A DNA stretch of 64,000 nt from assembly GCF_055900595.2 (NCBI RefSeq), contig NZ_CM148325.1; one strand, written 5' to 3'. Every line of letters starts with the position of its first letter. Positions within the stretch are counted from its first letter, which is position 1. The notes under the pieces were generated by a model. That model made no database searches and had not been told where the DNA came from. It worked only from the letters and a program-made list of their open reading frames with translations. The translations under genes were made by a program, and so were the position numbers. Of the stretch, positions 945 to 56,846 are shown piece by piece.

Positions 945-3416
945 TTAAGAATCAGCCTGACTCGGGATCAGTTTTTGCCAGATAACTGAAACGTATTTTG
1001 CCTGGTAACGGGCGTCATCAAGTGCATTATGCCGCTCACCTTCGAATGGAATAGCCGTTCTGGCATCGAAGTCTATGGCTTTCCCCAGCTCAACGATTGT
1101 GCGTACATCGCGATCGTTGTAGTAACGCCACGGGCAGGGGATCCCCTGCCGTTCGTATGAACGGCGCAAAATCGTGTTGTCGAAGTTGGCTCCATTTCCC
1201 CAGACCTGAACAAAAAATTCACCGGAGTTTTCGTCGATAAATTCCCGCAATTGTAACAGTGCATCATCTAACGGGATTTCATCGGTCATAATGGCAGACT
1301 GCGCTTCACGTGATTGCTTCAGCCACCATTTAATGACGTCACGATCAATGACTCCGCCAGCAGTATTCAGATCTATGGTCTTGCTAAATTCCGGTCCCAT
1401 ATCTCCGGTTTGTGGATCGAAAAATATTGCGCCTATTGAGATAATCGGGGCATCAGGATTTTTTCCCATGGTTTCAAGGTCGATCATTAGATGGTCACAC
1501 GTCCTGCTGGTGGATGTGATAACGTGATGACCGTTCACCGTAATTAAGGGATCTGCCGTCTCGCCAGTTTCACTATCGCTGGCGTGATCCTGAGCGCTGC
1601 CAGCATTCTCCTTGTGTGGATGTTCAGCGCCTTCCATTTTCTCCGAATCGTCTTCCTGAACTTCAACCTGGTTCTTGTCATCGAATGTTTCCTGGTATGT
1701 TGCGTCGCCCATCACCGCACCACATTCAGGGCAGTTGCCGCCGCCGGTCTGACCGTAGGCGGTGCAGATTTTTTCCGCTTCCTGTTGCGCTACTGGCTCA
1801 GGTTGTTTCGTTTCTGGCTCGTTTTGTAACGCATTTGGGCTGTTTTGTTCCGCTTTCTGGTCGTTCTGTTCCGTTTCTTGCTGGTTCTGGTTCACTGAAT
1901 CGCGGGTTTCAATCCCCTTCACCCATTTCGGATCATTCGGATCGCTAATCCCTGCAACAAATTCACCACGTGATACAGCAAGCAACTGATTGGCGTCAGG
2001 CTGGCTGATATTGGCTGCCTGCATAATTTTGTTTACTTCGTCAGCGGTAATTTTTACCGGCTCTGGTTGTGCGGTCGTGTCAGATGCACCAGTATTTTGT
2101 TGTGAACCTGAGTATGTACCGTTTTTGCGGGCGAAATATTCTTCTTTCGTGATTTCAGTAGCCCCGGCAGCCAGCGCCTTATCCAGACCAGAAAGTTTGT
2201 TTGCGCGACCGTATTTTTCGCCATCCTTGTCGGTAAAGAGGAAGTAGAACGGCCCCTCACGCTCTACAGATGGTTCGACTTCCACTTTGCATTCAGTTTT
2301 TTCGTTGCCCGGAATTGCCGTTTCCACTGCATCAGTTTCTGGTACTGGCGACGAGAGAGTATCAGTTGCGCTCTGATTTGTTCCTTCATCTTCAAACACG
2401 CCCTTTGTAGTCAGGTATTTAGTAATGTATTTGTTCAGTGCCACAGGGTCTTTGTGAATGTCGATCGGACGTTCACGGACAAGGCCAAAAATAGTCTGGC
2501 GGTCGTAGCGAAGGGCATCAGGCTGTTTGCGCATTGATGCCGAGATACGCTTCCAGTCTTCGCGGTCGTTGTCGATAACTTCATTTTTTGCCCAGCGATG
2601 GATGCTGCCGTCAATGTTTCCGGCATCCACATCACCAGGCCAGAGAGCGTAGGCCAGTTCGTCATCCAGTGTTTTCCATGTCTGCTTGTATTCGCGATGA
2701 GTGGCAGCAATGACCGGGTTGATTTTTCCTGTTGAATTTTCAGTGTGCTGTTGATTGGCTCTGGCGCGGGCGAGATCAACAACAGACGTGTATTTTCCGG
2801 TTTCCTTGCGTTCATTTTCGCGACGTTTTTTCCAGATGCGCATCTCTGCCTGAATTTCGGGCCATTTAGCTCCAGGATTACATTTATGTTTAACCCACCC
2901 GATGGCATGCAGCTTAAGCTCCGGATACATGGCGTTAACTTCTGGCATTTTCATCAACGCTTCAACGATATGTCCGTCGAATGTTGCCATGTCTTCCTGC
3001 AACAATTCCTGCGCGCTAATCACCATATCAACGGTGATGTTTTCACATGTGTCGAACTTAACCATGACAGCGTTCTGTACTTCAGGGGCCAGCTTGTCAA
3101 AAGTGACGTTCATCGGATCTGATTCAGTCTCAACCGGGACAAAGGAAGCAGACTCCTCATCCCAGCGGTTTTCCTGCATATATTCAGCATCCCAGGAATC
3201 GAGGGCAGGGCGGGGTATACCGGGTTTATCCTCGCAAACAAGAAATTTATAAGCGCAGTCCTGAGCAACCGGATAATGTTCCAGGAATTGCCAGTGAAAT
3301 TTTGCGCGGGCGCGACGTTCATCACCGGCTTCAATGGCAGTGGCTACAGCGATTGCACCTTCTTCCTTTATTGCCTGTTCGTCCGGAATGGCGGCGCAAA
3401 TAAAGACTTTACTCAT
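945..3416 (-). CDS. Exonuclease-like early protein (823 aa) with C-terminal DnaQ/DEDDh-type 3'-5' exonuclease domain
   Basis: C-terminal motifs HLMIDLETMG, GANFDNTIL and HNALDDARYQAKY; central CPECG zinc-ribbon-like motif; Q/E-rich linker; position equivalent to lambda exo region. Confidence 0.75.
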   Translation of the reverse strand: MSKVFICAAIPDEQAIKEEGAIAVATAIEAGDERRARAKFHWQFLEHYPVAQDCAYKFLVCEDKPGIPRPALDSWDAEYMQENRWDEESASFVPVETESDPMNVTFDKLAPEVQNAVMVKFDTCENITVDMVISAQELLQEDMATFDGHIVEALMKMPEVNAMYPELKLHAIGWVKHKCNPGAKWPEIQAEMRIWKKRRENERKETGKYTSVVDLARARANQQHTENSTGKINPVIAATHREYKQTWKTLDDELAYALWPGDVDAGNIDGSIHRWAKNEVIDNDREDWKRISASMRKQPDALRYDRQTIFGLVRERPIDIHKDPVALNKYITKYLTTKGVFEDEGTNQSATDTLSSPVPETDAVETAIPGNEKTECKVEVEPSVEREGPFYFLFTDKDGEKYGRANKLSGLDKALAAGATEITKEEYFARKNGTYSGSQQNTGASDTTAQPEPVKITADEVNKIMQAANISQPDANQLLAVSRGEFVAGISDPNDPKWVKGIETRDSVNQNQQETEQNDQKAEQNSPNALQNEPETKQPEPVAQQEAEKICTAYGQTGGGNCPECGAVMGDATYQETFDDKNQVEVQEDDSEKMEGAEHPHKENAGSAQDHASDSETGETADPLITVNGHHVITSTSRTCDHLMIDLETMGKNPDAPIISIGAIFFDPQTGDMGPEFSKTIDLNTAGGVIDRDVIKWWLKQSREAQSAIMTDEIPLDDALLQLREFIDENSGEFFVQVWGNGANFDNTILRRSYERQGIPCPWRYYNDRDVRTIVELGKAIDFDARTAIPFEGERHNALDDARYQAKYVSVIWQKLIPSQADS

Positions 3417-4057: not shown

Positions 4058-4113
4058 AAACGGCGGCAGAGCAGTCACGGAGTAAAACTGATACCGCTAA
4101 ACGTCACCAGAAA
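4058..4113 (-). ncRNA. dicF: DicF small RNA (ftsZ-targeting sRNA of Qin-type prophages)
   Basis: Minus-strand sequence ttttctggtgacgtttagcggtatcagttttactccgtgactgctctgccgccg followed by a T-run; near-identical to DicF as I recall it. Confidence 0.8.
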
Positions 4114-9669: not shown

Positions 9670-9823
9670 TTTTATATTGGCGAGGTGACGTGAGTTAAGT
9701 AGAATTGCTGCGGGTGCTTGAGGCTATCTGCCTCAGGCATGAACACCAACGGCAGATAGAGAAAAGCCCCAGTTAACATTACGCGTCCTGCAAGACGCTT
9801 AACATTAATCTGAGGCCAATTTC

Positions 9824-10036
9824 ATGCTAGACACATGTAGGTTAGCCTCTTACGTGCCGGAAGGCAAGGAGAAGCAGGCTATGAAGCAGCAAAAGGCGAT
9901 GTTAATCGCCCTGATCGTCATCTGTTTAACCGTCATAGTGACGGCACTGGTAACGAGGAAAGACCTCTGCGAGGTACGAATCCGAACCGGCCAGACGGAG
10001 GTCGCTGTCTTCACAGCTTACGAACCTGAGGAGTAA
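9824..10036 (+). CDS. mok: mok-like reading frame overlapping hok
   Basis: 70-aa frame that starts upstream of and reads through hok, as in hok/sok loci. Confidence 0.5.
   Translation: MLDTCRLASYVPEGKEKQAMKQQKAMLIALIVICLTVIVTALVTRKDLCEVRIRTGQTEVAVFTAYEPEE
9881..10036 (+). CDS. hok: Hok/Gef-family type I toxin
   Basis: 51 aa MKQQKAMLIALIVICLTVIVTALVTRKDLCEVRIRTGQTEVAVFTAYEPEE, Hok family (HokD/RelF-like as I recall it). Confidence 0.85.
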   Translation: MKQQKAMLIALIVICLTVIVTALVTRKDLCEVRIRTGQTEVAVFTAYEPEE

Positions 10037-12344: not shown

Positions 12345-13395
12345 CGTGCGGGTATTACTTAGACCTGTTCTGGTGCCAGAGCTTGGGCTGGTGGTCCTTA
12401 AACTAGGCCGTGAATCCATGCCGGTATTCCACAATACCCGGGTACTGGTGGAGCCGGAACCGAAAAGCATGCGTAATCTGCCGTCCGGGGTCGTTCCTGC
12501 CGTTCGCCAGCCGCTGGTGGAAGACAAAACATTGCTGCCGTTTTTCAGTAACGCACGGGTGATTCGTGCTGCTGGTGGTGCTGGTGCATTGTCTGACTGG
12601 CTGTTGCGCCATATTAAATCCTGCCAGTGGCCGCACGGCGATTATCATCACAGCGAAACCGTCATTCACCGTTATGGTACCGGCGCAATGGTGTTGTGCT
12701 GGCACTGCGACAACCAACTGCGTGACCAGACATCCGAATCACTCGAGCAACTTGCTCATCAAAACCTGTCAGCATGGATGATTGACGTCATCGGTCACGC
12801 AATAAGCGGTACGCAGGAGCGTGAATTATCTCTGGCTGAATTATCCTGGTGGGCGCTCCGCAATCAGGTGGCGGACGCGCTACCGGAAGCGGTATTACGT
12901 CGTTCGCTGGGATTACCAGCGGAAAAAATCTGCTCGGTGTACCGCGAGAGCGACATCGTACCGGGAGAGCAGACCGCCACCAGCATATTGAAACAACGCA
13001 CAAAAAATCTTGCACCGTTGCCTTACGCCCACCAGCAACAAAAACCACCACAGGAAAAGACGGTGGTAAGCATCACCGTTGATCCAGAGTCTCCGGAATC
13101 TTTCATGAAGCTGCCTAAACGTCACCGTTGGGTTAAGGAGAAATACACACGCTGGGTTAAGACACAGCCGTGTGCTTGCTGCGGGATGCCAGCCGACGAT
13201 CCGCATCATCTGATTGGTCACGGGCAGGGCGGAATGGGAACCAAAGCACATGATCTCTTTGTGTTGCCTTTGTGCAGAAAGCATCACGACGAGTTGCATA
13301 CGGATACCGTGGTATTTGAAGAGAAGTATGGCTCCCAACTGGAGCTGATTTTTCGATTTATCGATCGCGCGCTGGCAATTGGTGTGCTGGCCTAA
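12307..13395 (+). CDS. DUF968-family protein with C-terminal HNH-like motif (YdfU-like); start uncertain
   Basis: C-terminal [17 protein letters not shown]...HHDELH zinc-finger/HNH-like motif; located just upstream of Q. Confidence 0.65.
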
Positions 13396-13412
13396 TTTTG
13401 TGGAGTAAGTTG

Positions 13413-13790
13413 ATGCGTGATATTCAGATGGTTCTTGAGCGTTGGGGGGCATGGGCGGCTAATAATCATGAAGATGTGACCTGGTCGTCCATTGCCGCTG
13501 GTTTTAAGGGATTAATTCCTTCAAAAGTAAGATCTCGTCCGCAATGCTGTGACGATGACGCGATGATCATTTGTGAATGTATGGCTCGCCTGAGAAAAAA
13601 CAACAGCGATTTACATGGTTTATTGGTGGACTATTATGTCGGCGGCATGACTTTTATGGCGCTTGCACGTAAGCATGGGCGATCTGATTGTTGGGTTGGC
13701 AGGATGCTCCAGAAAGCTGAGGGCGTAGTGGAGGGCATGCTGATGGTATTGGATCTCCGATTGGAGATGGATGCTGATTGTTCGAAATAA
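13413..13790 (+). CDS. Late antiterminator Q (phage 82/21 QuuD type)
   Basis: [31 protein letters not shown]...[16 protein letters not shown] matches the QuuD-like Q family. Confidence 0.85.
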
Positions 13791-19053: not shown

Positions 19054-19416
19054 ATTAATATTAAATCGGATTATTTTTAGCGCTGAATGTGAAATTTAAA
19101 TAAAAAGGACTCTTCCATGAGTCAAAATCCTTGAAATCTTAAGGGTAAGATAAAAGGTCATTAGACAGAATGACACGTTTTATTAATAAATAAAGCTATT
19201 GTTTCATTCGTGTGTTTTTCTTTACAAAAGTAATCCTTGCTATGGTTGGTTAATCATGCGTTAATGGTGTTCTGGTTTGTTACAAAATTATCTGAAGCAG
19301 TCATTGTTATAATTTTATTATTTGTACCTCTTGAGATTTCCTTGTTGGTTTTTCTCTCTGATATTTTTTTTCGGACCATTCTGCCCAAGGGCTAACTTCT
19401 TCAAAAGGTAATAATG

Positions 19417-19629
19417 ATGTCTAACAAAATGACTGGTTTAGTGAAATGGTTTAACCCTGAAAAAGGTTTTGGTTTCATCACGCCGAAAGATGGTAGCAAA
19501 GATGTGTTTGTCCATTTCTCAGCTATTCAGAGCAACGATTTCAAAACGTTAACTGAGAATCAGGAAGTCGAATTTGGTATTGAGAACGGACCTAAAGGCC
19601 CCGCGGCTGTTCATGTTGTGGCACTTTGA
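19417..19629 (+). CDS. cspI: Cold shock protein (CspI-like)
   Basis: [38 protein letters not shown]... cold-shock domain. Confidence 0.9.
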
Positions 19630-19828
19630 GGTAGATAATATTACAAACCATATTCACTTTAGATGCCCGTGTTGCCATGGTTCTCAGTATAGAACATCAT
19701 CTTTTGATGTTTCTGACAGGAATCCTTTCGGGGCAAAATGTATCTTTTGTAAATCAATGATGATTACATTTGATAATATTTCACAATACTTAAATGTTAG
19801 CCGTCTATCGTTAGATTTAAGAAAGTGA
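19613..19828 (+). CDS. Possible small Cys4 zinc-ribbon protein
   Basis: [10 protein letters not shown]...CIFCKS motif; weak RBS; start overlaps the csp stop. Confidence 0.3.
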
Positions 19829-19900: not shown

Positions 19901-20131
19901 ATGAAAAAAATAATAGTTTTTTTTAACTCTGAACCAGCAATGGTAGTGCCAGTGATGACCGGAGTTAACACCATCATGCGTGAATATCCAAATGGCGAAA
20001 CAACACACCTCACTGTAATGGCTGCAGGGTTTCCATCTCTGACCGGAGATCATAAAATCATTTATGTAGCAGCGGATCGACATGTAACTTCAGAAGAAAT
20101 TCTGGAAGCAGCAATGAGACTCTTGAATTGA
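19901..20131 (+). CDS. Hypothetical protein (76 aa)
   Basis: Clean ORF in the cold-shock moron cluster. Confidence 0.45.
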   Translation: MKKIIVFFNSEPAMVVPVMTGVNTIMREYPNGETTHLTVMAAGFPSLTGDHKIIYVAADRHVTSEEILEAAMRLLN

Positions 20132-30743: not shown

Positions 30744-31081
30744 CGCGGGAAATGCAGTTTGTCATGCGGCTTGCCCGGGAGTTCCGGCGGGCAGACTGGC
30801 GGCGGATGCTGTCGGAAATGTCGGCCACTGAGCTTGGTGAGTGGGGCGATTATTTCCGGATGCAGAGCTTCAGTGATGTGTGGATGGATGCGCAGTTTGC
30901 CTCGCTGAAGGCATTGATCGTGAGAATGGTGTCCGGCAGCAGTGATGCTGCGGTGGCTGATTTCAGCCTTTTACCGGAAGAGAACGGGATACCGGAGCGA
31001 ACGGACGAAGAACTGATGCATCTTGGGGAAGGTATTTCCGGAGGTGTGCGTTATGGACCAGATAGCCAACCTGGTCATTGA
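30677..31081 (+). CDS. Tail assembly protein T segment (expected as G-T fusion via -1 frameshift)
   Basis: -1 frame is open from 30677 across the G stop into the T-like ORF. Confidence 0.7.
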
Positions 31082-34000
31082 TTTGGGGATTGATGCGGCA
31101 GAGTTTAAAAATGAAATTCCCCGTATCAAAAACCTTCTGAATGGTGCAGCCAGCGATGCAGAACGGTCTTCTGCCCGTATGCAGCGTTTTATGGAGCGTC
31201 AGACTCAGGCCGCCCGGCAGACAACGCAGGCAGCTTCTTCGGCTGCAACAGCCGCATCCGTCCATGCGCAGACGGTGGAGAAGAACGCACAGGCTCATGA
31301 ACGCATGGCCCGCGAGGTGGAGAAAACCCGCCAGCGCATGGAGGCACTGAGCCAGAAAATGCGCGAGGAACAGGCGCAGGCCATCGCTCTGGCGGAGGCT
31401 CAGGATAAAGCGGCTGCTGCGTTTTATCGTCAGATTGACAGTGTGAAACAGGCCAGTGCGGGGCTGCAGGAATTACAGCGTATTCAGCAGCAGATCCGAC
31501 AGGCCAGAAACAGTGGCGGGATTGGTCAGCAGGATTATCTGGCGCTGATTTCTGAGGTTACGGCGAAAACCCGTGTTCTTACGCAGGCTGAGGCAGAGGC
31601 TACCCGACAGAAAGTGGCGTTTATCCGTCAGCTTAAAGAGCAGGCAACCCGCCAGAATCTTTCTTCTTCTGAGTTGCTTCGTGCCAGGGCTGCCCAGCTG
31701 GGGGTAAGCAGTGCTGCAGAAGTGTATATCCGCAAAATGGAGCGGGCAGGAAAAGCCACGCATTCGCTGGGTCTGAAAAGTGCAGCGGCCCGCCAGGAGA
31801 TAGGCGTTCTGATAGGTGAACTGGCCCGCGGCAATTTAGGGGCGCTGAGGGGATCCGGGATAACGCTGGCTAACCGTGCCGGATGGATAGACACACTGAT
31901 GTCACCGAAAGGCATGATGCTGGGCGGGGTTATTGGCGGTATTACCGCGGCCGTCTATGGTCTGGGTAAAGCCTGGTATGACGGTCAGAAGGAGGGGGAA
32001 GAATTTAACCGCCAGCTGTCGCTGACGGGGCATTATGCCGGAGTCACTGCCGGGCAGCTGTGGACGCTCAGTCGTGCTATTTCCGGGAATGGTATCACGC
32101 AACATGCTGCAGCCGGTGCGCTGGCTCAGGTGGTGGGGAGTGGTGCATTTCGTGGAAACGATATCGGTATGGTGGCGAGAGCTGCCGCACAGATGGAGCG
32201 ATCGGTTGGCCAGTCGGTCAGCGATACCATAAATCAGTTTAAGCGGCTGAAGGATGATCCTGTAAATGCCGCGAAGTCTCTGGACAATGAGCTGCATTTT
32301 CTTACTGCCACTCAGCTTGAGCAGATACGCGTCCTTGGAGAGCAGGGGCGGTCCAGTGATGCGGCACGGATAGCCATGTCTGCACTGGCAGAGGAAACCG
32401 GTCGGCGTACTGCGGATATTGATAATAACCTCAATGCGCTGGGCAGTACGCTGCAAACTTTGTCTGACTGGTGGAAGCAGTTCTGGGATGCGGCCATGAA
32501 TATTGGTCGTGAAGATTCGCTGGATGCGCAGATTGCCACTTTGCAGGAGAAAGTGTCGCGGGCGAAAAGACTCCCCTGGACGGCATCATCTTCTCAGGTT
32601 GAATACGATCAGCAGCGTCTTAACGATCTTCAGGAGAAAAAACGCCAGAAGGATTTGCAGGATGCAAAAGAGCAGGCAGAGCGGAATTATCAGGAGCAAC
32701 AGAAACGCCGTAATGCTGAAAATGCTGCACTGAACCGGATGAATGAAACGGAAGCTGCACGACATCAGCGTGAAATTGCGCGTATTAATGCCATGCAGTA
32801 CGCCGATCAGGCTGTCAGGGATGCGGCGATACAACGTGAAAATGAACGTTACGAGAAAGCCCTGGCATCCGGTAAGAAAAAAACACGCGAAACCCGTAAT
32901 GATGAGGCCACCCGGTTATTGCTGCAGTACAGTCAGCAACAGGCACAGGTGGAAGGACAGATTGCTGCTGCCAGACAGTCAGCAGGCATTGCCACGGAAA
33001 GGATGACAGAAGCGCATAAACAGCTCCTGGCTCTGCAGCAGCGCATCAGCGACCTGGACGGGAAAAAACTGACGGCAGATGAAAAGAGTGTGCTGGCCCG
33101 TAAAGATGAACTGATTCAGGCACTGACGCTGCTGGATGTAAAACAGCAGGAGCTTCAGAAACAGACGGCACTCAACGAGCTGAAGAAAAAACAATTCAGC
33201 TGACCAGTCAACTGGCTGAAGAAGAGCGCGCTCAGCGTCAGCAACATGACCTGGATATCGCCACGGTGGGTATGGGTGATCAGCAGCGACAGCGATATCA
33301 GGTACAACTGAGTCTTCGCCAGAAATACCAGCAACAGCTGGAGCAGTTGAGGCGGGATAGTGAGCAGAAAGGGACATATAACACGGATGACTACAGAAAG
33401 GCCGAGCAGGCGCTGACGGAGAGCCTGAACCGACAACTGAATGAGAATCGCCGTTACTGGCAACAGCTTGAAGTTGTGCAGGGTAACTGGAAAAACGGAG
33501 TCCTGCGTGCATTTCAGGATTTTACCGTGGATGCAGATAATACGGCAGAAACAGCAGAACAGGTGTTCTCGTCAGCCTTCAGCAACATGGGAAATGGCCT
33601 GGCAACTTTTGTCACTACCGGCAAACTCAATTTCAAATCCTTCACCTCTTCTGTGCTGTCAGATATGGCGAAAATCCTGGCGCAGGCAACCATGATGAAA
33701 TCGATAAAAGGGATTGGCAGTGTACTGGGATTTGATCTCAGCAGCCTTTCCCTGAATGCCAATGGGGGGATTTATCAGTCTGCTGATTTGAGTCGTTACA
33801 GTGGCACGGTGGTTAACCGTCCGACGTTTTTTGCTTTTGCAAAAGGCGCGGGTGTGATGGGGGAAGCGGGACCTGAAGCCATTCTGCCATTGCGTCGTGG
33901 TGCTGACGGTAAGCTGGGGGTTGTGGCGGATATTGGGGGTTCAGGTATGGCGATGTTTTCCCCGCAGTACAACATCGAGATCAATAACGATGGCACGAAC

Positions 34001-34117
34001 GGGCAGATAGGTCCGGCTGCCCTGAAGGCGGTTTATGACCTCGGGAAAAAAGCGGCAGCGGACTTTATGCAACAGCAGGCCCGTGATGGTGGTCGGTTAA
34101 GTGGAGCATATCGGTAA
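31053..34117 (+). CDS. Tail tape measure protein (gpH-like), interrupted by an apparent frameshift near 33186-33203
   Basis: Two consecutive ORFs (frame 0 to 33203, -1 frame open from 33110) both with tape-measure character; GGAGGTG RBS before ATG 31053. Confidence 0.8.
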
Positions 34118-34455: not shown

Positions 34456-35154
34456 ATGCAGGATATTCCACAGGAAACACATCATGAGACGACACGCCTC
34501 ACTCAGTCAGCCCAGGTGGTGCTCTGGGAAATCGATCTGACAGAGGTCGGTGGTGAACGTTATTTTTTCTGTAATGAGCAGAACGAAAAAGGTGAGCCGG
34601 TTACCTGGCAGGGGCGGCAGTATCAGGCATACCCCATTCAGGGGACGGGATTTGAACTGAACGGCAAGGGCAGTGCTGCCCGTCCGACACTGACGGTTTC
34701 TAACCTGCACGGAATGGTCACCGGGATGGCGGAAGACCTGCAGAGTCTGGTCGGCGGAACGGTGGTCAGGCGTAAGGTTTACGCCCGTTTTCTGGATGCG
34801 GTGAACTTCGTCAACGGAAACAGTGACGCCGATCCGGAGCAGGAGGTGATCAGCCGCTGGCGCATCGAGCAGTGCAGCGAACTGAGCGCGGTCAGTGCCT
34901 CTTTTGTACTGTCCACGCCGACGGAAACGGACGGTGCTGTTTTTCCGGGACGTATTATGCTGGCCAACACCTGCACCTGGACCTATCGCGGCGATGAGTG
35001 CGGTTATAGCGGTCCGGCGGTCGCGGATGAATATGATCAGCCGACGTCCGATATCACGAAGGATAAATGCAGCAAATGCCTGAGCGGCTGTAAGTTCCGC
35101 AATAACGTCGGCAACTTTGGCGGTTTTCTTTCCATTCACAAACTTTCGCAGTAA
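34456..35154 (+). CDS. Minor tail protein L
   Basis: Lambda L-like, conserved Cys cluster at the C-terminus. Confidence 0.9.
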   Translation: MQDIPQETHHETTRLTQSAQVVLWEIDLTEVGGERYFFCNEQNEKGEPVTWQGRQYQAYPIQGTGFELNGKGSAARPTLTVSNLHGMVTGMAEDLQSLVGGTVVRRKVYARFLDAVNFVNGNSDADPEQEVISRWRIEQCSELSAVSASFVLSTPTETDGAVFPGRIMLANTCTWTYRGDECGYSGPAVADEYDQPTSDITKDKCSKCLSGCKFRNNVGNFGGFLSIHKLSQ

Positions 35155-35158
35155 TTCC

Positions 35159-35902
35159 ATGACAGAGACAGAATCAGCGATTCTGGCGCACGCCCGGCGA
35201 TGTGCGCCAGCGGAGTCGTGCGGCTTCGTGGTGAGAGCGCCGGAGGGGGAAAGATATTTCCCCTGCGTGAATATCTCCGGTGAGCCGGAGGCGTATTTCC
35301 GGATGTCGCCGGAGGACTGGCTGCAGGCAGAGATGCAGGGTGAGATTGTGGCACTGGTCCACAGTCACCCCGGTGGTCTGCCCTGGCTGAGTGAGGCCGA
35401 CCGGCGGCTGCAGGTGCAGAGTGATTTGCCGTGGTGGCTGGTTTGCCGGGGAGCGATTCACAAGTTCCGCTGTGTGCCACATCTTTCCGGGCGGCGCTTT
35501 GAGCACGGGGTGACGGACTGTTACACGCTGTTCCGGGATGCTTACCATCTGGCGGGGATTGAGATGCCGGATTTTCATCGCGAGGATGACTGGTGGCGTA
35601 ACGGTCAGAATCTCTATCTGGATAATCTGGAGGCCACAGGGCTGTATCAGGTGCCGTTGTCAGCGGCGCAGCCGGGCGATGTGCTGCTGTGCTGTTTTGG
35701 TTCATCGGTGCCGAATCATGCCGCCATTTACTGTGGTGACAGCGAGCTGCTGCACCATATTCCTGAACAACTGAGCAAACGAGAGAGGTACACCGACAAA
35801 TGGCAGCGACGCACACACTCCCTCTGGCGTCACCGGGCATGGCACGCATCTGCCTTTACGGGGATTTACAACGATTTGGCCGCCGCATCGACCTTCGAGT
35901 GA
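35159..35902 (+). CDS. Tail assembly protein K (MPN/JAB plus NlpC/P60-like)
   Basis: VALVHSHPGG motif; lambda K-like. Confidence 0.9.
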   Translation: MTETESAILAHARRCAPAESCGFVVRAPEGERYFPCVNISGEPEAYFRMSPEDWLQAEMQGEIVALVHSHPGGLPWLSEADRRLQVQSDLPWWLVCRGAIHKFRCVPHLSGRRFEHGVTDCYTLFRDAYHLAGIEMPDFHREDDWWRNGQNLYLDNLEATGLYQVPLSAAQPGDVLLCCFGSSVPNHAAIYCGDSELLHHIPEQLSKRERYTDKWQRRTHSLWRHRAWHASAFTGIYNDLAAASTFE

Positions 35903-39500: not shown

Positions 39501-39903
39501 TAAAACAGTGGGCAAAGCTTTCCCCCGGGACTCCCGTGCACCGGAGCGGTGGCCATCAGGGACCATTACCGTCAGGGTTTATGACGATCAGCCGTTTGAC
39601 CGGCAGATTGTTATTCCGGCGGTGGCATTCAGCGGCGCTAAACATGAGAGAGAGCATACTGATATTTACTCCTCATGCCGTCTGATAGTGCGGAAAAACG
39701 GTGCTGAAATTTATAACCGTACCGCGCTGGATAATACGCTGATTTACAGTGGCGTTATTGATATGCCTGCCGGTCACGGTCACATGACGCTGGAGTTTTC
39801 GGTGTCAGCATGGCTGGTAAATGACTGGTATCCCACAGCAAGTATCAGCGATTTGCTGGTTGTGGTGATGAAGAAAGCCACCGCAGGCATCAGTATCAGC
39901 TGA
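36508..39903 (+). CDS. Host specificity protein J (central tail fibre)
   Basis: Near-identical to lambda J over most of its length as I recall it; C-terminal about 150 aa diverge. Confidence 0.9.
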
Positions 39904-39922
39904 ATTTTATAACCCATATACG

Positions 39923-39946
39923 GGCGCCAGAAATGGCGCCTTTTTT
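39923..39946 (+). terminator. Rho-independent terminator after J
   Basis: gggcgccagaaatggcgcctttttt. Confidence 0.7.
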
Positions 39947-39970
39947 ATTGCAGAAAAGCGAGAGGTAATT

Positions 39971-40570
39971 ATGCGTAAAGTTTGTGCAGCCATTTTGTCC
40001 GCAGCCATCTGTCTGTCCGTATCCGGTGCGCCTGCATGGGCATCTGAACATCAGTCCACGCTGAGCGCGGGGTATCTTCATGCCTCGACGAACGTTCCCG
40101 GCAGCGATGATCTTAACGGGATTAACATGAAATACCGTTATGAGTTTACGGACACACTGGGGCTGGTGACGTCATTCAGCTATGCAGGAGACAAGAATCG
40201 CCAGCTTACCCGTTACAGCAATACCCGCTGGCATGAAGATTCCGTGCGTAACCGCTGGTTCAGCGTGATGGTGGGGCCGTCTGTGCGCGTGAATGAATGG
40301 TTCAGCGCGTATGCGATGGCGGGTATGGCTTACAGCCGTGTGTCGACTTTTTCCGGGGATTATCTCCGCGTAACTGACAATAAGGGGAAAACGCACGATG
40401 TGCTGACCGGAAGTGATGACGGTCGCCACAGCAACACGTCTCTGGCGTGGGGAGCTGGCGTGCAGTTTAACCCGACCGAATCCGTGGCCATTGATATTGC
40501 TTATGAAGGCTCCGGCAGTGGTGACTGGCGCACTGACGGTTTCATCGTGGGTGTCGGTTATAAATTCTGA
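39971..40570 (+). CDS. lom: Lom-like outer-membrane protein (Ail/Lom family)
   Basis: Signal peptide plus beta-barrel, ends with aromatic residue; lambda Lom-like. Confidence 0.85.
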
Positions 40571-40596
40571 TTAGCCAGGTAACACAGTGTTATGAC

Positions 40597-40623
40597 AGCC
40601 CGCCGGTTCAGGCGGGCTTTTTG
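40597..40623 (+). terminator. Rho-independent terminator after lom
   Basis: agcccgccggttcaggcgggcttttt. Confidence 0.7.
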
Positions 40624-41330
40624 TGCACAGAAAACCCCCAGCTAGGCTGGGGGTTCCGGAAAGCTTTCAGCTTTGAGCCAGTTATTAAAACCCCTTTTGA
40701 TTTGTTAAAACACCTTGCGGTCTGGCAACTGCAAGTGTCAAACAAGAAATCAAAAGGGGGTCCCAATGGGGGACGAAAAGAGCTTAGCGCACACCCGCTG
40801 GAACTGTAAATATCACATAGTTTTTGCGCCGAAATACCGAAGACTGGCGTTTTACGGAGAGAAGCGTAGGGCGATAGGCAGTATTTTGAGAAAGCTGTGT
40901 GAGTGGAAAAGCGTACGGATTCTGGAAGCAGAGTGCTGCGCAGATCATATCCATATGCTTGTGGAAATCCCACCCAAAATGAGCGTATCCGGCTTTATGG
41001 GATATCTGAAAGGGAAAAGCAGTCTGATGCTTTACGAGCAGTTTGGGGATTTGAAATTCAAATACAGAAACAGGGAGTTCTGGTGCCGAGGGTACTATGT
41101 CGATACGGTGGGTAAGAACACGGCGAAGATACAGGACTACATAAAGCACCAGCTTGAAGAGGATAAAATGGGGGAGCAGTTATCGATTCCATATCCGGGC
41201 AGCCCGTTTACGGGCCGTAAGTAACGAAGTTGAATGCAAATGTCAGATCGTATGCGCCTGTTAGGGCGCGGCTGGTAACAGAGCCTTACAGGCGCATTTG
41301 AAAAACCTCCGGCTATGCCGGAGGATATTT
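40621..41330 (+). mobile_element. IS200-family insertion sequence (about 710 bp, boundaries approximate)
   Basis: Left-end hairpin cccccagctaggctggggg, second stem-loop over the RBS, tnpA, right-end hairpin cctccggctatgccggagg. Confidence 0.8.
40766..41224 (+). CDS. tnpA: IS200 transposase TnpA (HUH Y1 transposase)
   Basis: MGDEKSLAHTRWNCKYHIVFAPKYRR...HIHMLVEIPPKMSVS matches IS200 TnpA. Confidence 0.9.
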   Translation: MGDEKSLAHTRWNCKYHIVFAPKYRRLAFYGEKRRAIGSILRKLCEWKSVRILEAECCADHIHMLVEIPPKMSVSGFMGYLKGKSSLMLYEQFGDLKFKYRNREFWCRGYYVDTVGKNTAKIQDYIKHQLEEDKMGEQLSIPYPGSPFTGRK

Positions 41331-41345
41331 ATTTGTGGAGTGGAT

Positions 41346-43751
41346 ATGGCAGCAGTAAAAATCTCAGGTGTGCTGAAAGATGGTGCGGGAAAACCAATAC
41401 AGAACTGCACTATTCAACTGAAGGCAAAGCGTAACAGCACCACGGTACTGGTGAACACGGTGGCTTCTGAAAATCCGGATGAAGCCGGACGTTACAGCAT
41501 GGATGTTGAGTATGGCCAGTACAGCGTCACCCTGCTGGTTGAAGGTTTTCCGCCTTCACATGCCGGGACCATTACCGTCTATGAAGGCTCCAGACCAGGT
41601 ACGCTGAATGATTTTCTCGGTGCCATGACGGAAGATGATGTCATGCCGGAGGCATTGCGTCGTTTTGAGGCAATGGTGGAAGAAGTGGCACGCAACGCCG
41701 AAGCCGCCTCTCAGAGCGCAGCGGCGGCAAAGAAATCCGAAACTGCAGCGGCATCATCAAAGAACGCGGCGAAAACCTCAGAAACGAATGCAGCTAATAG
41801 TGCACAGGCGGCAGCGACCTCAAAGACTGCATCGGCAAACTCCGCGACAGCAGCCAAAAAATCAGAAACCAACGCGAAAAATAGCGAGACAGCCGCAAAG
41901 ACGAGCGAAACCAACGCAAAGTCCAGCCAGACGGCAGCGAAAACCAGCGAAACGAATGCCAAAGCCAGTGAAACTGCGGCAAAAAACAGCCAGGTTGCAG
42001 CAGCCCAAAGCGAGAGCGCGGCAGCCGGTTCTGCGACTTCAGCAGCTGGATCAGCAACTGCTGCGGCTAACAGCCAGAAAGCTGCGAAGACGAGTGAAAC
42101 TAACGCAAAGTCCAGCCAGACGGCAGCGAAGACCAGCGAAACGAATGCCAAAACCAGCGAAACTGCGGCGAAAAACAGTCAGGATGCAGCAGCCCAAAGC
42201 GAGAGTGCTGCAGCTGGTTCTGCAAGCGCGGCGGCTGCTTCTGCCACTGCATCAGCTAACAGTCAAAAAGCAGCAAAAACCAGTGAAACCAACGCAAAGG
42301 CGAGCGAGACTGCGGCGGCGAACTCGGCGCAAGCATCGGCAGCAAGCCAGACAGCAGCTAAAGCAAGTGAAGACGCAGCCAGAGAGTATGCAAGCCAGGC
42401 AGCGGAGCCGTATAAACAAGTTTTGCAGCCGTTGCCCGATGTGTGGATACCGTTTAATGATTCACTGGATATGATTACGGGCTTTTCGCCATCATATAAA
42501 AAAATTGTTATTGGCGACGATGAAATAACAATGCCTGGCGACAAGATTGTAAAGTTTAAACGCGCATCGAAAGCAACTTACATTAATAAATCTGGTGTGC
42601 TGACAGAGGCTGCCATTGACGAGCCACGATTTGAACGTGATGGCCTGCTTATTGAGGGGCAAAGAACTAACCTGCTAATCAATTCAACAAATCCGACTAA
42701 ATGGAACAAGTCGTCAAATATGATCTTAAGTGCATCAGGTGTAGATGATTTCGGATTCCAGTACGCAAAATTTACATTAAAACCAGAAATGGTAGGGCAA
42801 ATTTCAGCGATTAACATAGTAACCGTTTCCGGCAGTAAAGGTTTTGATGTAACAGGCGGAGAAAAGTATGTAACCATATCATGCAGGGTGCAAAGTGGCA
42901 CTCCAAATTTAAGATGCCGATTACGATTTGAAAACTATGATGGTTCTACCTACACATTCTTAGGTGACGCTTACTTAAATACGACAGATTTATCTATTGA
43001 TAAGACGGGTGGTGCCGCTAATCGCATTACTGCAAGGGCTGTTAAAGATGAAGCAAGCAAATGGATCTTTTTTGAGGCGACAATTAAGGCACTTGATACA
43101 GAAAATATGATAGGTGGAATGGTTCAGTATGCCCCGGCAAAAGGAGTGGGCACTGGCGCGGATGATTATATTTATATTGCGACCCCTCAAGTTGAAGGTG
43201 GGGCGTGCGCTTCATCGTTTATTATAACAGGCGCATCCCCTGTAACACGCGCCAGCGATATTGTGACGGTCCCCATTTCTCTAAATTGGTGCAATCCCGC
43301 TATTAGTTCATTAGCAGAAGTTAATACCAATTGGGATGAATCGCCAAACAAAGAAGGTAGCGCACGTATTCTTAATATTTCCACTACGGGAGATACAACT
43401 GAAATTGCAGATGAAAGTTATATGTATTTGGGGTATACATCTTTGGGAGCACGCGCAATCATTACAAATGGTAAAGGCACTAAAATAGAATATAAAAGCG
43501 TTATAGAACGACCAGAGAGAAAAAGCATTATCGGCTTTAGATTCACAGAAAGTCGAGAATTGTGTGTTGTGGTTAACGGTAATATTGGTGCTAAGGTAGT
43601 TTCTCCTTATAAAAAACACAAATATACAGGAGGCTTCATTAATATTGGTGGTCAATCATCATCCGGCAACCGTCACCTATTTGGACACGTTCGAAATCTG
43701 CGTATTTGGCACAAGGCATTGACTGATGCTCAGATGGGGGAGTCAATCTAA
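41346..43751 (+). CDS. Side tail fibre protein (Stf-like)
   Basis: N-terminus MAAVKISGVLKDGAGKPIQNCTIQLKAKRNSTTV matches Stf; Ala/Ser/Thr-rich repeats; divergent C-terminal domain. Confidence 0.85.
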   Translation: MAAVKISGVLKDGAGKPIQNCTIQLKAKRNSTTVLVNTVASENPDEAGRYSMDVEYGQYSVTLLVEGFPPSHAGTITVYEGSRPGTLNDFLGAMTEDDVMPEALRRFEAMVEEVARNAEAASQSAAAAKKSETAAASSKNAAKTSETNAANSAQAAATSKTASANSATAAKKSETNAKNSETAAKTSETNAKSSQTAAKTSETNAKASETAAKNSQVAAAQSESAAAGSATSAAGSATAAANSQKAAKTSETNAKSSQTAAKTSETNAKTSETAAKNSQDAAAQSESAAAGSASAAAASATASANSQKAAKTSETNAKASETAAANSAQASAASQTAAKASEDAAREYASQAAEPYKQVLQPLPDVWIPFNDSLDMITGFSPSYKKIVIGDDEITMPGDKIVKFKRASKATYINKSGVLTEAAIDEPRFERDGLLIEGQRTNLLINSTNPTKWNKSSNMILSASGVDDFGFQYAKFTLKPEMVGQISAINIVTVSGSKGFDVTGGEKYVTISCRVQSGTPNLRCRLRFENYDGSTYTFLGDAYLNTTDLSIDKTGGAANRITARAVKDEASKWIFFEATIKALDTENMIGGMVQYAPAKGVGTGADDYIYIATPQVEGGACASSFIITGASPVTRASDIVTVPISLNWCNPAISSLAEVNTNWDESPNKEGSARILNISTTGDTTEIADESYMYLGYTSLGARAIITNGKGTKIEYKSVIERPERKSIIGFRFTESRELCVVVNGNIGAKVVSPYKKHKYTGGFINIGGQSSSGNRHLFGHVRNLRIWHKALTDAQMGESI
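41901..42278 (+). repeat. Tandem direct repeat (about 189 bp x2) inside stf
   Basis: acgagcgaaaccaacgcaaagtccagccagacggcagcgaaaaccagcgaaacgaatgcc... repeated with few substitutions. Confidence 0.75.
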
Positions 43752-44041: not shown

Positions 44042-44746
44042 ATGGCTACATCAACAGTAATTCCGGGAGACATCACCACGCTGAAGGGAGATGTTAGTAA
44101 AGCAAAGGAAGATATTTCCTCTATTAACGGAAAAGTATCAACGCTTCAGACTGATATGGCCAGTGCAAAGCAGGATATCAGCACCAGATACACAAAAACT
44201 GAAGTTGATAATAAGCTGAAAAACAAAGTGGAAGTGAACGATCTGGAAAGTGGTCGTTATGGCGGAGATTTTTACCCGCTGACTGGCCGTGAAGCGTTTT
44301 ATTTATGGGGATTGGGCACAACTACAGCGGCGGCAAATCTTTATCTTAATCCTGACCCTGCAATTTCGTCTGTGCTGCGGTCAACATCGTCTATCCGCTA
44401 TAAACATTCAGTAGAGACGATAGATTCAGAGCACGCCGATCTCATTTTCAGGATGCGCCCTGTGTGGTACAGGTCGCAATGCGAAAATGACAGGCGTGAC
44501 TGGGGATTCTATGGATTGATTGCCGAGGAAGTTGGAGAAATTGCCCCTCAGTTTGTTCACTGGCGACCAGCCAACGAAGATGATGCACCGGAAACCATTT
44601 CCAGCAATGGCCTTGTTGCCGAAGGTGTAATGTACGAACGTCTGGTTGTTCCACTGATTCACCATATCCAGAAGCTGACTGAAAGAGTTGATGAACTTGA
44701 GTCAGAATTAAAGTTGTTATCCGTTTCCCGAAGCGATATCGGATAA
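44042..44746 (+). CDS. Tail-fibre-related protein with C-terminal chaperone-like (S74-type) domain
   Basis: N-terminal coiled-coil; C-terminal GFYGLIAEEVGEIAPQFVHWRP resembles the intramolecular chaperone domain of fibre/spike proteins. Confidence 0.5.
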   Translation: MATSTVIPGDITTLKGDVSKAKEDISSINGKVSTLQTDMASAKQDISTRYTKTEVDNKLKNKVEVNDLESGRYGGDFYPLTGREAFYLWGLGTTTAAANLYLNPDPAISSVLRSTSSIRYKHSVETIDSEHADLIFRMRPVWYRSQCENDRRDWGFYGLIAEEVGEIAPQFVHWRPANEDDAPETISSNGLVAEGVMYERLVVPLIHHIQKLTERVDELESELKLLSVSRSDIG

Positions 44747-44756
44747 AGGAGGCGTA

Positions 44757-45050
44757 ATGGATATAACACCTTTCCTTCATGCACTTTGTGCTGTGGCTGC
44801 GCAGGTACTGGTTGGTCTTTTTACCGGAAACTGGGCTTACGGGGCGATAGCTGGTTGTACGTTCTTCATTGCGCGTGAACATACCCAGGCAGAATATCGC
44901 TGGATTGAAATGTTCGGGCATGGCAAGCGTATGAATATGCCGTGGTGGGGCGGTTTTGATCCGCGTGCGTGGGATGTGGCAAGCCTGATGGATTTTGCTG
45001 TGCCGGTGGTGGCGTGTCTGCTGGTCTGGCTGTTGGTTAATCGTGGGTGA
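44757..45050 (+). CDS. Small membrane protein (97 aa, 2 TM)
   Basis: RBS AAGGAGG before the ATG; two hydrophobic helices. Confidence 0.5.
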   Translation: MDITPFLHALCAVAAQVLVGLFTGNWAYGAIAGCTFFIAREHTQAEYRWIEMFGHGKRMNMPWWGGFDPRAWDVASLMDFAVPVVACLLVWLLVNRG

Positions 45051-45064
45051 AAAAAGGTGAGCTG

Positions 45065-45178
45065 TATATGCAACGGAGGAAGAAACCTCGTTGCGGGAAG
45101 CCTTGAAGAAGTATCGGGTGTTGCTGAACCGTGTTGATACGTCAACTGCACAGGATATTGAATGGCCAGCACTGCCGT
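45065..45178 (+). pseudogene. Remnant of a tail fibre assembly gene (Tfa C-terminus only)
   Basis: Translation [34 protein letters not shown] matches the conserved Tfa C-terminus; no N-terminal part. Confidence 0.65.
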
Positions 45179-45277
45179 AGGGTAAAACATATAAATTCTA
45201 TAATTAGATGTATCTTTCCATTTACGGCAAGGAAGGGGGCTTGGAAGACGTAAGGCATCTCACACCGAGATTATTTT

Positions 45278-45868
45278 TTATATGTCAGGTGTCTGAAGTT
45301 TTGCTTTGGCTCTTAAAATGGTTTGCCGCGAGGTTTTGAATTCCCGGGCAATGGCACTTATACTTACACCTGACTTAATCCGTTCGAATACCACCTGTTT
45401 CTGTTCTTCATTTAACACAGGTGGTCGACCAAAACGTTTCCCTGCGCCCCGGGCTCTTACTATCCCGGAATGAGTGCGTTCAAGTAAAAGGTCTCGTTCA
45501 AATTCAGCGACTGCTGAAATTACTTGCATCATCATTTTTCCTGTTGGACTGGTCAGGTCAATGCCCCCCAATGCTAAGCAATGCACTCTGATACCTGTTT
45601 CGGTCAGTTGTTCCACTGTTTTCCTGATATCCATTGCATTACAACCAAGGCGATCCAGTTTTGTCACAATCAATTGATCACCACATTTCAGGCGAGCAAG
45701 CAACCGGTTAAAACCAGGACGCTCACTGGTTGCTGCTGAGCCGCTAATGTGTTCTTCGATTATTTGCTGAGGTTTGATTTTAAAACCTGCACTTTCGATT
45801 TCCCGGCGTTGATTTTCGGTGGTCTGATCCAGCGTTGATATCCGACAGTAAGCAAAAATTCGAGACAT
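45278..45868 (-). CDS. pin: Pin-type serine DNA invertase
   Basis: [29 protein letters not shown]... matches PinQ/PinR as I recall them. Confidence 0.9.
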
Positions 45869-56532: not shown

Positions 56533-56577
56533 GCTCCGTTTAACATTCATTGAGAAAACTGATGCTACTGTGTCAAC

Positions 56578-56677
56578 GATCCGTTATCAGTGCAGGAAAA
56601 TGCCTGTTAGCGTAAAAGCAAAACACAAATCTATCCATGCAAGCATTCACCGCCGGTTTACTGGCGGTTTTTTTTCG
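56578..56677 (+). ncRNA. mgrR: Candidate MgrR small RNA (boundaries approximate)
   Basis: Intergenic position between dgcZ and mgtS; ends at intrinsic terminator ccgccggtttactggcggtttttttt. Confidence 0.45.
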
Positions 56678-56750
56678 CCGTCATAAAAATCAGGCCCCTT
56701 GTACACAGTTGTAACAAGGGGCCGGTTAGGTGAGGGATTATCTCCGTTCA

Positions 56751-56846
56751 TTAGTCATCCCATTTGTGGCTGAAATACGCGGCCAGAAAACCAGAAAATA
56801 AAATTATTCCCAGTACGGCCATAAAAACATTCATATTACCCAGCAT
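56751..56846 (-). CDS. mgtS: Small membrane protein MgtS (YneM), 31 aa
   Basis: Minus-strand MLGNMNVFMAVLGIILFSGFLAAYFSHKWDD; not in the ORF track because of size. Confidence 0.8.
   Translation of the reverse strand: MLGNMNVFMAVLGIILFSGFLAAYFSHKWDD

Follow-up and report, generated by a model that had tools for sequence, protein, structure and literature searches.

The window analysed here, a stretch of 64,000 nucleotides, contains a lambdoid prophage of full length, integrated at the E. coli Qin (ydfJ) locus. The prophage is related to the cryptic Qin; it carries DicF, hokD/sok, cspI and pinQ and ends with a truncated ydfJ. Its lom gene and its side tail fibre gene, stf, are 775 nt apart. 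This gap holds an intact IS200 element (IS200/IS605 family, IS200 group) and has a single noteworthy open reading frame (ORF), of 152 aa with its start at 40766. The features considered below are as follows.

13398..13790, + strand: Q-family late antiterminator (ORF; annotated 'antiterminator Q family protein' in a prophage 99.9% identical here).
39971..40570, + strand: lom, Ail/Lom family outer-membrane beta-barrel protein, 199 aa (ORF; RefSeq annotation of near-identical prophages).
40597..40622, + strand: predicted lom intrinsic terminator, stem-loop AGCCCGCC-GGTTCA-GGCGGGCT with a T-run at 40618-40622 (terminator scan, DNA fold).
40623..41333, + strand: IS200 element, 711 bp, GTGCACAGAA...GATATTTATT (ends from about 50 complete IS200/IS1541 copies and the empty site).
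40633..40655, + strand: left-end perfect hairpin AACCCCCAGC-TAG-GCTGGGGGTT, IS200 nt 12-34 (DNA fold, Rfam alignment).
40691..40759, + strand: long 5'UTR stem-loop burying the Shine-Dalgarno sequence of tnpA (DNA fold, z -5.6; Rfam STnc490).
40766..41224, + strand: tnpA, Y1 HUH transposase, 152 aa (Pfam, NCBIfam, motif positions).
41306..41333, + strand: right end, hairpin CCTCCGGC-TAT-GCCGGAGG (41306-41324) and tail ATATTTATT (fold, terminator scan).
41334..41345, + strand: stf leader TGTGGAGTGGAT, with the ribosome-binding site (RBS) GGAG at 41337-41340 (empty-site comparison).
41346..43751, + strand: stf, prophage side tail fibre, 801 aa, intact (ORF; RefSeq annotation of relatives).

The closest relative among complete genomes is strain 300033, in which the lom-stf junction is empty. 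Its prophage shows 99.9% identity over window positions 1-36542 and about 99.1% identity past the start of the tail-tip gene J. A cluster of mismatches at 34950-35400 illustrates the mosaic nature of lambdoid prophages. Compared with the nearest IS-free relative, the lom product differs by 1 aa and the stf product by 3 aa, and stf has kept its RBS, its start and the spacing between them; the stf ATG at 41346 is identical to the RefSeq start in near-identical prophages. As a separate observation, the tape-measure gene appears frameshifted and split, an A-run at 33186 having lost 1 nt. If this frameshift is real, the prophage would be tail-defective whatever the IS does, and the question of stf would be moot.

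A sequence-only reading of this DNA had proposed a complete IS200-like element inserted between lom and stf, and our searches bear out both parts of this proposal. The flanks are an Ail/Lom-family gene (39971-40570) and a tail-fibre gene (41346-43751), and the element itself is supported by protein families, by an RNA family and by its identity to copies at three other loci, with 0 differences in 711 nt. The tnpA product matches Pfam Y1_Tnp PF01797 over model positions 2-121 of 121 (E 9.1e-37) and the NCBIfam equivalog NF033573 transpos_IS200 with 144.4 bits against a cut-off of 55. It contains the HUH motif H61-I-H63 (residues 61-63) and the catalytic tyrosine Y125, the residue changed in the catalytic-dead TnpA mutant Y125F (PMC4513863). 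Additionally, positions 40633-40756 match the full length (1-124) of Rfam RF01405 STnc490, a model of both the left-end hairpin of IS200 and the stem-loop in the tnpA 5'UTR, and the score of 146.4 bits exceeds the gathering score, which is 56. The strand opposite the stem-loop (40691-40759) encodes the antisense RNA art200. Alignment with a reference IS200, which the same reading had suggested as a check, found the IS200 ends in place, at about 91% identity to a Salmonella copy.

The anatomy of the element agrees with this assignment. When the strand is folded as DNA, the left-end hairpin forms a perfect 10-bp stem; it is a bidirectional terminator and presumably also the hairpin bound by TnpA. 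The right-end hairpin has a stem of 8 bp, its tail finishes in TTATT, and in the terminator scan the right end scores as terminator-like on both strands. Read directly from the sequence, the two ends of the element are not inverted repeats. Published IS200 anatomy comprises a terminator inverted repeat at nt 12-34 and a second one at nt 69-138 in a length of 707 bp (PMC4513863), and since the folded structures match it, the window element is complete. With its ORF and ends intact and identical copies in three or more unrelated loci and strains, this copy is probably transposition-competent, judging by its sequence. A search of the window for a second IS200 copy found none. Several weak Rfam matches, far below their gathering scores, were dismissed, namely Ysr202 at 41301-41366, a second STnc490 at 41304-41420, ST7-AS1_2 and BASRCI337; the Ysr202 match is the right-end hairpin read as a - strand terminator.

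The boundaries of the element were set by comparing copies and by the empty site. The mutual similarity of three independent E. coli copies, found after lom, rpoS and ybiJ, ends at the same two points. In one Yersinia pestis genome with about 50 complete IS1541 copies, the right side is constant to ...GGAGGATATTTATT, after which all four bases occur; the sequence of these copies is conserved through ...TATTTATT and variable beyond. On the left, the constant part of the aligned IS copies begins with (T)GTGC, 10-11 nt ahead of the hairpin. The empty lom-stf junction, present at a coverage of at least 80% in 4,457 of 5,426 complete E. coli genomes, reads GGCGGGC-TTTTTT-GTGGAGTGGATATG, and the window junction, with the element in brackets, reads GGCGGGC-TTTTT[GTGCACAG...GATATTTATT]T-GTGGAGTGGATATG. 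This comparison with the uninterrupted junction, another check that had been suggested, reveals a clean insertion into the T-run of the lom terminator, 3' of TTTTT, without target-site duplication. Our end definition, GTGC...TATT, puts into the flank one T that lies inside the element by the published numbering.

Positions 40597-40622 are host/phage sequence outside the IS, and their structure predicts a terminator, with an 8-bp stem containing 7 GC pairs and a 6-nt loop; the same hairpin is present in the empty site, followed there by T6 and in the window by T5. The first T of the stf leader is the final T of the original lom T-run. The span 40597-41345, given earlier for the complete element, is therefore right for the lom-stf gap as a whole but too wide for the element, which occupies only 40623-41333. 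More than 50 independent copies and the empty site place 26 nt on the left with the lom terminator and 12 nt on the right with the stf leader. The order of features described earlier is as we find it: the left-end hairpin (40633-40655) lies 10 nt past the terminator stem-loop and T-run, and the stf RBS (GGAG, 41337-41340) and ATG (41346) lie beyond the right-end hairpin (41306-41324).

The element is of a known kind, and RefSeq annotates it at the same junction in about 150 of the 5,426 complete E. coli genomes; RefSeq labels for IS200 include 'IS200/IS605 family transposase' and 'IS200C'. The window IS is identical over 711 nt to the copies that follow rpoS and ybiJ and to one at a second lom site; this last copy lies in a diverged prophage, with 82 mismatches in the 700 nt to its left. 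Such identity across unrelated loci indicates a recently active IS lineage, and the empty junction in strain 300033, the closest relative, indicates that the insertion is recent on the window backbone. Seven occupied junctions were examined, from three E. coli genomes and four to five IMG/VR contigs. In each of them the left side has six Ts and the right side reads ...TATTTATT-GTGGAG, and the insertion point in the window lies one base to the left of all other occupied junctions seen. This one-base offset lies in homopolymers, where an assembly error is conceivable, since other homopolymer indels separate the assembly from its closest relative.

Two IS variants, which differ from each other at 27-28 positions, occur at the lom site. 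Most of the junctions examined carry IS200C, and this variant was seen on two diverged lom backgrounds. The flanks most like those of the window, with 0/700 mismatches to the right of the element and 19/700 to its left, belong to strain XJ6.1, which carries the other IS variant, with 28 differences, at the other insertion position. In their simplest reading, these observations suggest at least two, and probably three, independent insertions into the lom terminator. Alternatively, a single ancestral insertion at lom might have been spread by recombination, with the offset arising as a homopolymer sequencing or slippage artefact and the variants through gene conversion. The mosaic character of lambdoid prophages, seen in the mismatch cluster described above, the other homopolymer indels in the window and the presence of IS200C on two diverged lom backgrounds would all fit such a history. 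However, the offset is compensated, as an insertion one base further left predicts, and would otherwise require two independent errors; a compensated pair of this kind (-1 T on the left, +1 T on the right) is unlikely. Furthermore, the closest backbone, that of XJ6.1, carries the other variant, and the prophage closest overall (99.9% upstream of J, about 99.1% onwards) has no IS. We thus consider a single ancestral insertion very doubtful and retain repeated insertion as the preferred reading.

The wider IS200 lineage shows what these insertions have in common. An exact-match scan with the 23-nt left-end hairpin, using one genome per species, returned at least 120 DNA stretches, and the matches listed, together with the window and E. 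coli loci, gave 122 distinct insertion sites. The listed sites come from Yersinia, Vibrio, Brenneria, Dickeya, Edwardsiella and Pluralibacter, and from metagenome-assembled genomes labelled Oxalobacter, Mailhella/Desulfovibrio, Bacillota, Peptococcaceae, Elusimicrobiaceae and Saccharibacteria. At nearly all 122 listed sites, a GC-rich hairpin is followed by a T tract and then by the IS. Among these sites, T stands at position -4 in 117, at -3 in 102, at -1 in 120 and at +1 (the base first counted as IS nt 1) in 109 of 122, and position -2 is T, A or G. The flank counts give TT(T/A)TT as the target, which agrees with the last five bases of the element, TTATT.

The association with hairpins is strong in comparison with controls from the same loci. 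A strict criterion was used, namely a perfect Watson-Crick hairpin with arms of at least 6 nt and at least 3 GC pairs, ending no more than 8 nt from the insertion point. Such a hairpin was found at 69 of the 122 listed sites (57%), most of the others having imperfect hairpins, as against 8 of 489 random positions (1.6%) and 22 of 642 positions after TTTT (3.4%). The mean fold energy of the upstream 40 nt was -18.3 kcal/mol at the listed sites versus -7.1 and -6.6 kcal/mol in the controls. A looser criterion (arms of at least 5 nt, G-T pairs, one mismatch) was dropped, as 84-88% of control positions passed it. Within the window, 22 of 654 TT[AT]TT sites follow a hairpin of the strict kind (13 hairpins), and the IS occupies one of them. 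In Y. pestis, head-to-tail IS1541 tandems have one copy placed after the right end of another, that is, after a hairpin and TTATT, and the hairpin-T tract rule extends to the Yersinia, Vibrio, Mailhella, Bacillota and Oxalobacter copies among the matches listed. Given that copies of this lineage are almost always found 3' of TT(T/A)TT with a terminator-like hairpin immediately upstream, the lom terminator is best understood as the target and not as a chance neighbour.

A previous survey reported terminator-like sequences upstream of IS200/IS605 elements and interpreted them as a sign of persistence, not of targeting (bioRxiv 10.1101/2025.07.22.666184). The statistical association between IS200 and terminators has thus already been reported and is not new; our search, which was made without the older IS200/IS1541 literature, found an explicit statement of it only in that preprint (version June 2026). 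Following this view, IS200 would have no true target preference and would enter T-rich DNA anywhere, with harmless copies surviving, and gaps after terminators are indeed among the safest places in compact genomes. However, the insertions are more regular than this: at the sites among the matches listed, the element invariably enters the T tract, 0-8 nt from the hairpin foot, and the strand it enters is the one with the hairpin and the Ts. One T-run has been entered at two positions, one base apart; tandem insertions follow the TTATT at the right end of another copy; and the same rule recurs in the five groups of listed copies just named. Survival of harmless insertions could account for part of the hairpin association, and as its whole explanation we find it quite improbable. 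A preference for terminators, with lom among them, remains our reading.

It is possible, and we propose it tentatively as somewhat less than an even prospect, that the IS200 group recognises a structured single-stranded target, in which TT(T/A)TT follows a hairpin of the terminator type, as a mimic of the right end of the element itself (hairpin and ATATTTATT). If structured targeting is true, intrinsic terminators of genes co-oriented with replication would be specific landing pads, including the phage lom terminator and lambda tR2, and the repeated independent insertions into the lom terminator would be explained. As a corollary, a tnpA within an antiterminated phage operon would be highly transcribed only during lytic growth, when single-stranded replication intermediates are abundant, and transposition would be coupled to prophage induction. 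Should TnpA indeed recognise the hairpin, the target rule would be refined for the least understood branch of the IS200/IS605 family, the reported excess of terminators would reflect mechanism rather than selection, and IS200 landing sites could be predicted simply.

The orientation of the insertion can be related to replication. The + strand of the window corresponds to the - strand of MG1655 at 1.63 Mb (ydfJ, ydfI, pinQ). In E. coli, oriC lies near 3.9 Mb and the terminus near 1.6 Mb. By the standard replication map, we take the + strand of the window to be the lagging-strand template at 1.63 Mb. On this template, the lom terminator hairpin and T-run would be exposed in single-stranded form, considering one copy. 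In IS608 and ISDra2, TnpA binds subterminal hairpins on one strand, a short guide immediately 5' of each hairpin foot selects the cleavage sites through base interactions, and a single-stranded circle is released and inserted 3' of a target resembling the right-end terminus, with the lagging-strand template preferred (PMC6006769). By analogy with this 'peel-and-paste' model, TnpA would excise the top strand of IS200 as a single-stranded circle and paste it into single-stranded DNA at the replication fork, and for this one copy the lom terminator would be exposed on the strand that such a model calls for. A-rich stretches occupy the guide positions of the window element (GAAAA at 40630-34 and GAAAAA at 41300-05), and such guides 5' of the end hairpins could read the T-rich cleavage and target sites. 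IS200 transposition is very rare (PMC4513863).

The sequence-only reading had suggested that the insertion may separate stf from its upstream transcription, and published work gives this concern a basis: IS200 was first discovered as a polar insertion in hisD (PMC4513863), and its left-end hairpin is a bidirectional terminator that stops about 85% of incoming transcripts (PMC5435999). At the lom-stf junction, the IS200 ends might likewise prevent late transcription from reaching stf and the fibre genes beyond it, leading to fibreless particles or gene decay. Several findings are consistent with such polarity, namely the score of the right end as a + strand terminator, an stf that is truncated or annotated as a pseudogene in two IS-bearing loci examined (L006 and L130), and the result of a search of the phage collection, in which no deposited phage genome has IS200 at the lom-stf junction. 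However, in the empty junction a strong predicted terminator, that of lom, already lies directly ahead of the stf RBS, so that stf must already depend on terminator read-through; its expression would thus rely on antitermination, and the prophage has a Q gene (13398-13790). The right end of the IS leaves a hairpin and a T-rich tail just ahead of stf, as before the insertion. Moreover, of the 6 occupied junctions in which the whole ORF could be read, 5 have a full-length stf; the window stf shows only the 3-aa difference from its IS-free relative, and stf pseudogenes also occur at empty junctions. Two phage records, described below, seem to tolerate a co-oriented IS200 in an antiterminated early operon. 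Polarity of this kind is therefore unlikely in our view.

We instead favour a model in which the insertion is largely neutral for stf. In the lysogen, the lom terminator and the left-end terminator of the IS would keep transcription that starts outside the element away from tnpA. In lytic growth, RNA polymerase modified by Q must already pass the lom terminator on its way to stf and should pass the IS hairpins too, and the insertion would lengthen the late transcript by 711 nt with little loss of stf expression. From the arrangement of these signals, an effect on stf during lytic growth is probably small; some loss of stf transcription is possible and would probably be slight. We infer that an insertion at the lom-stf site is compatible with a viable phage. 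An IS-borne or outward promoter driving stf was also considered and is unsupported, as 0 sigma-70-like promoters were found in 39800-41600, where 1.9 were expected by chance.

Taken together, IS200 is present here as an intact copy in the lom terminator, and it was probably targeted there and probably imposes little cost on stf. In itself this is an ordinary insertion, and the adjoining tail-fibre gene looks unharmed. Its position is explained by the lom terminator as a target that was apparently used more than once, as lambda tR2 was used in other phages. What goes somewhat beyond the record is the explicit rule, a hairpin and TT(T/A)TT mimicking the right end of the element, together with the repeated use of phage terminators.

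The nearest known systems are the IS200 copies of Salmonella enterica and E. coli (ISfinder IS200 group), which are of the same size class, 711 bp in the window and 707 bp as published. They share the left-end hairpin, the 5'UTR stem-loop, the art200/STnc490 region, the right-end hairpin and a 152-aa TnpA with HUH and Y125. The window IS is 91.2% identical over 705 nt to a Salmonella houtenae copy and 96% identical to the IS200C variant, from which it differs at 27-28 nt; the TnpA of the window variant is WP_000502112.1, and there is no difference of substance from known IS200. IS1541 of Yersinia pestis and Y. pseudotuberculosis has the same architecture, an identical left-end hairpin, the right end GGAGGATATTTATT and, in about 55 copies among the matches listed, the same insertion context of a hairpin and T tract. 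Its first 10 nt are slightly different (GTGCCCAGAA versus GTGCACAGAA in the window), and its copy number in Yersinia is much higher.

IS608 of Helicobacter pylori and ISDra2 resemble the window IS in having a Y1 HUH transposase and subterminal hairpins, without inverted repeats or target duplication, and in inserting 3' of a short target sequence similar to the terminus of the right end, with guide bases 5' of the hairpin foot (PMC6006769); the guide/target pairing for IS200 is extrapolated from IS608. In contrast to IS200, these elements have a tnpB gene as well and insert at the targets TTAC and TTGAT. The target of the IS200 group appears to be TT(T/A)TT after a hairpin, whereas a hairpin is not a known requirement of IS608.

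A parallel in phages is provided by two records deposited as phage genomes, those of Escherichia phages Lambda_ev058 and PhiR63_2, in which IS200 lies between ren and ninB. The insertion context is GGCCTGC...GCAGGCCTTTTTATT|TGGGGG, with TTATT as the target, and the terminator at this site is lambda tR2. In lambda, the essential Q gene is downstream of the tR2 position. A search of the literature naming the phages with IS200 at tR2 returned nothing usable on their viability. Their IS200 is 711 bp long, 95.6-96% identical to the window IS, co-oriented and, like the copy at lom, in a terminator T tract (CTTTTTATT|IS|TGGGGG). The phage copies occupy the early (N-antiterminated) operon, whereas the window IS occupies the late (Q-antiterminated) operon.

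The closest relative prophage (strain 300033) differs from the window in a RecE-like gene of 823 aa near the start of the window, intact here and broken by IS1F in the relative (L129 1826-5074), and in the tail tape-measure gene.

945-3416, minus strand: RecE-like exonuclease gene, 823 aa, annotated '3'-5' exoribonuclease domain / exonuclease'
31023-34117: tail tape-measure gene, present as two separate ORFs (726 and 283 aa)

The tape-measure split results from a 1-nt deletion at 33186 within an A-run (A6 in the window, A7 in the relative), and the 99.9%-identical relative carries the gene as a single ORF of 1021 aa. The deletion may be genuine, in which case the frameshift inactivates the gene, or it may be an assembly error in the homopolymer. 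The stretch 34950-35400, where the minor tail protein L gene meets the C40 peptidase gene, holds a cluster of about 25 mismatches plus an indel (35153) against otherwise 99.9% identity to the relative; this cluster is a short mosaic patch left by recombination. Additionally, a T-run at 19917 is one T longer in the window than in the relative. The ynfN gene is annotated as frameshifted in the relative, and the window may be the holder of its intact form.

Four matches to Rfam RNA families, all exceeding the gathering score, were recorded in the window.

4061-4112, minus strand: DicF
9712-9886, plus strand: sok, adjoining hokD
19259-19675, plus strand: cspA-type thermoregulator leader (cspI)
56544-56757, plus strand: STnc560, within the host flank

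DicF, sok and the cspI leader are consistent with a Qin-type prophage.

The N-terminal half of the side tail fibre gene, stf, contains an internal direct repeat of 249 nt (41880-42128 and 42069-42317, 83% identity), which encodes 'SETNAK...' repeats rich in alanine, serine and threonine. The region downstream of the fibre genes resembles what is left of an invertible segment for fibre switching.

44746-45868: truncated tail-fibre assembly gene and pinQ
45278-45868, minus strand: pinQ, DNA invertase

An IS200 of 711 bp is also found between ren and ninB in two records deposited as phage genomes.

L135 1440-2240: IS200 region, Lambda_ev058
L136 1440-2240: IS200 region, PhiR63_2

In both, the element is oriented with the early operon and interrupts a T tract, reading CTTTTTATT, then the IS, then TGGGGG; the terminator hit is one that we take to be lambda tR2.

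In Yersinia pestis NCTC5923, copies of IS1541, the Yersinia relative of IS200, stand in head-to-tail tandem.

L073 about 2650-3400: tandem IS1541
L075 about 12600-13340: tandem IS1541

Here copy 2 starts immediately past the right end of copy 1 (hairpin plus TTATT), so IS1541 uses its own right end as an insertion target.
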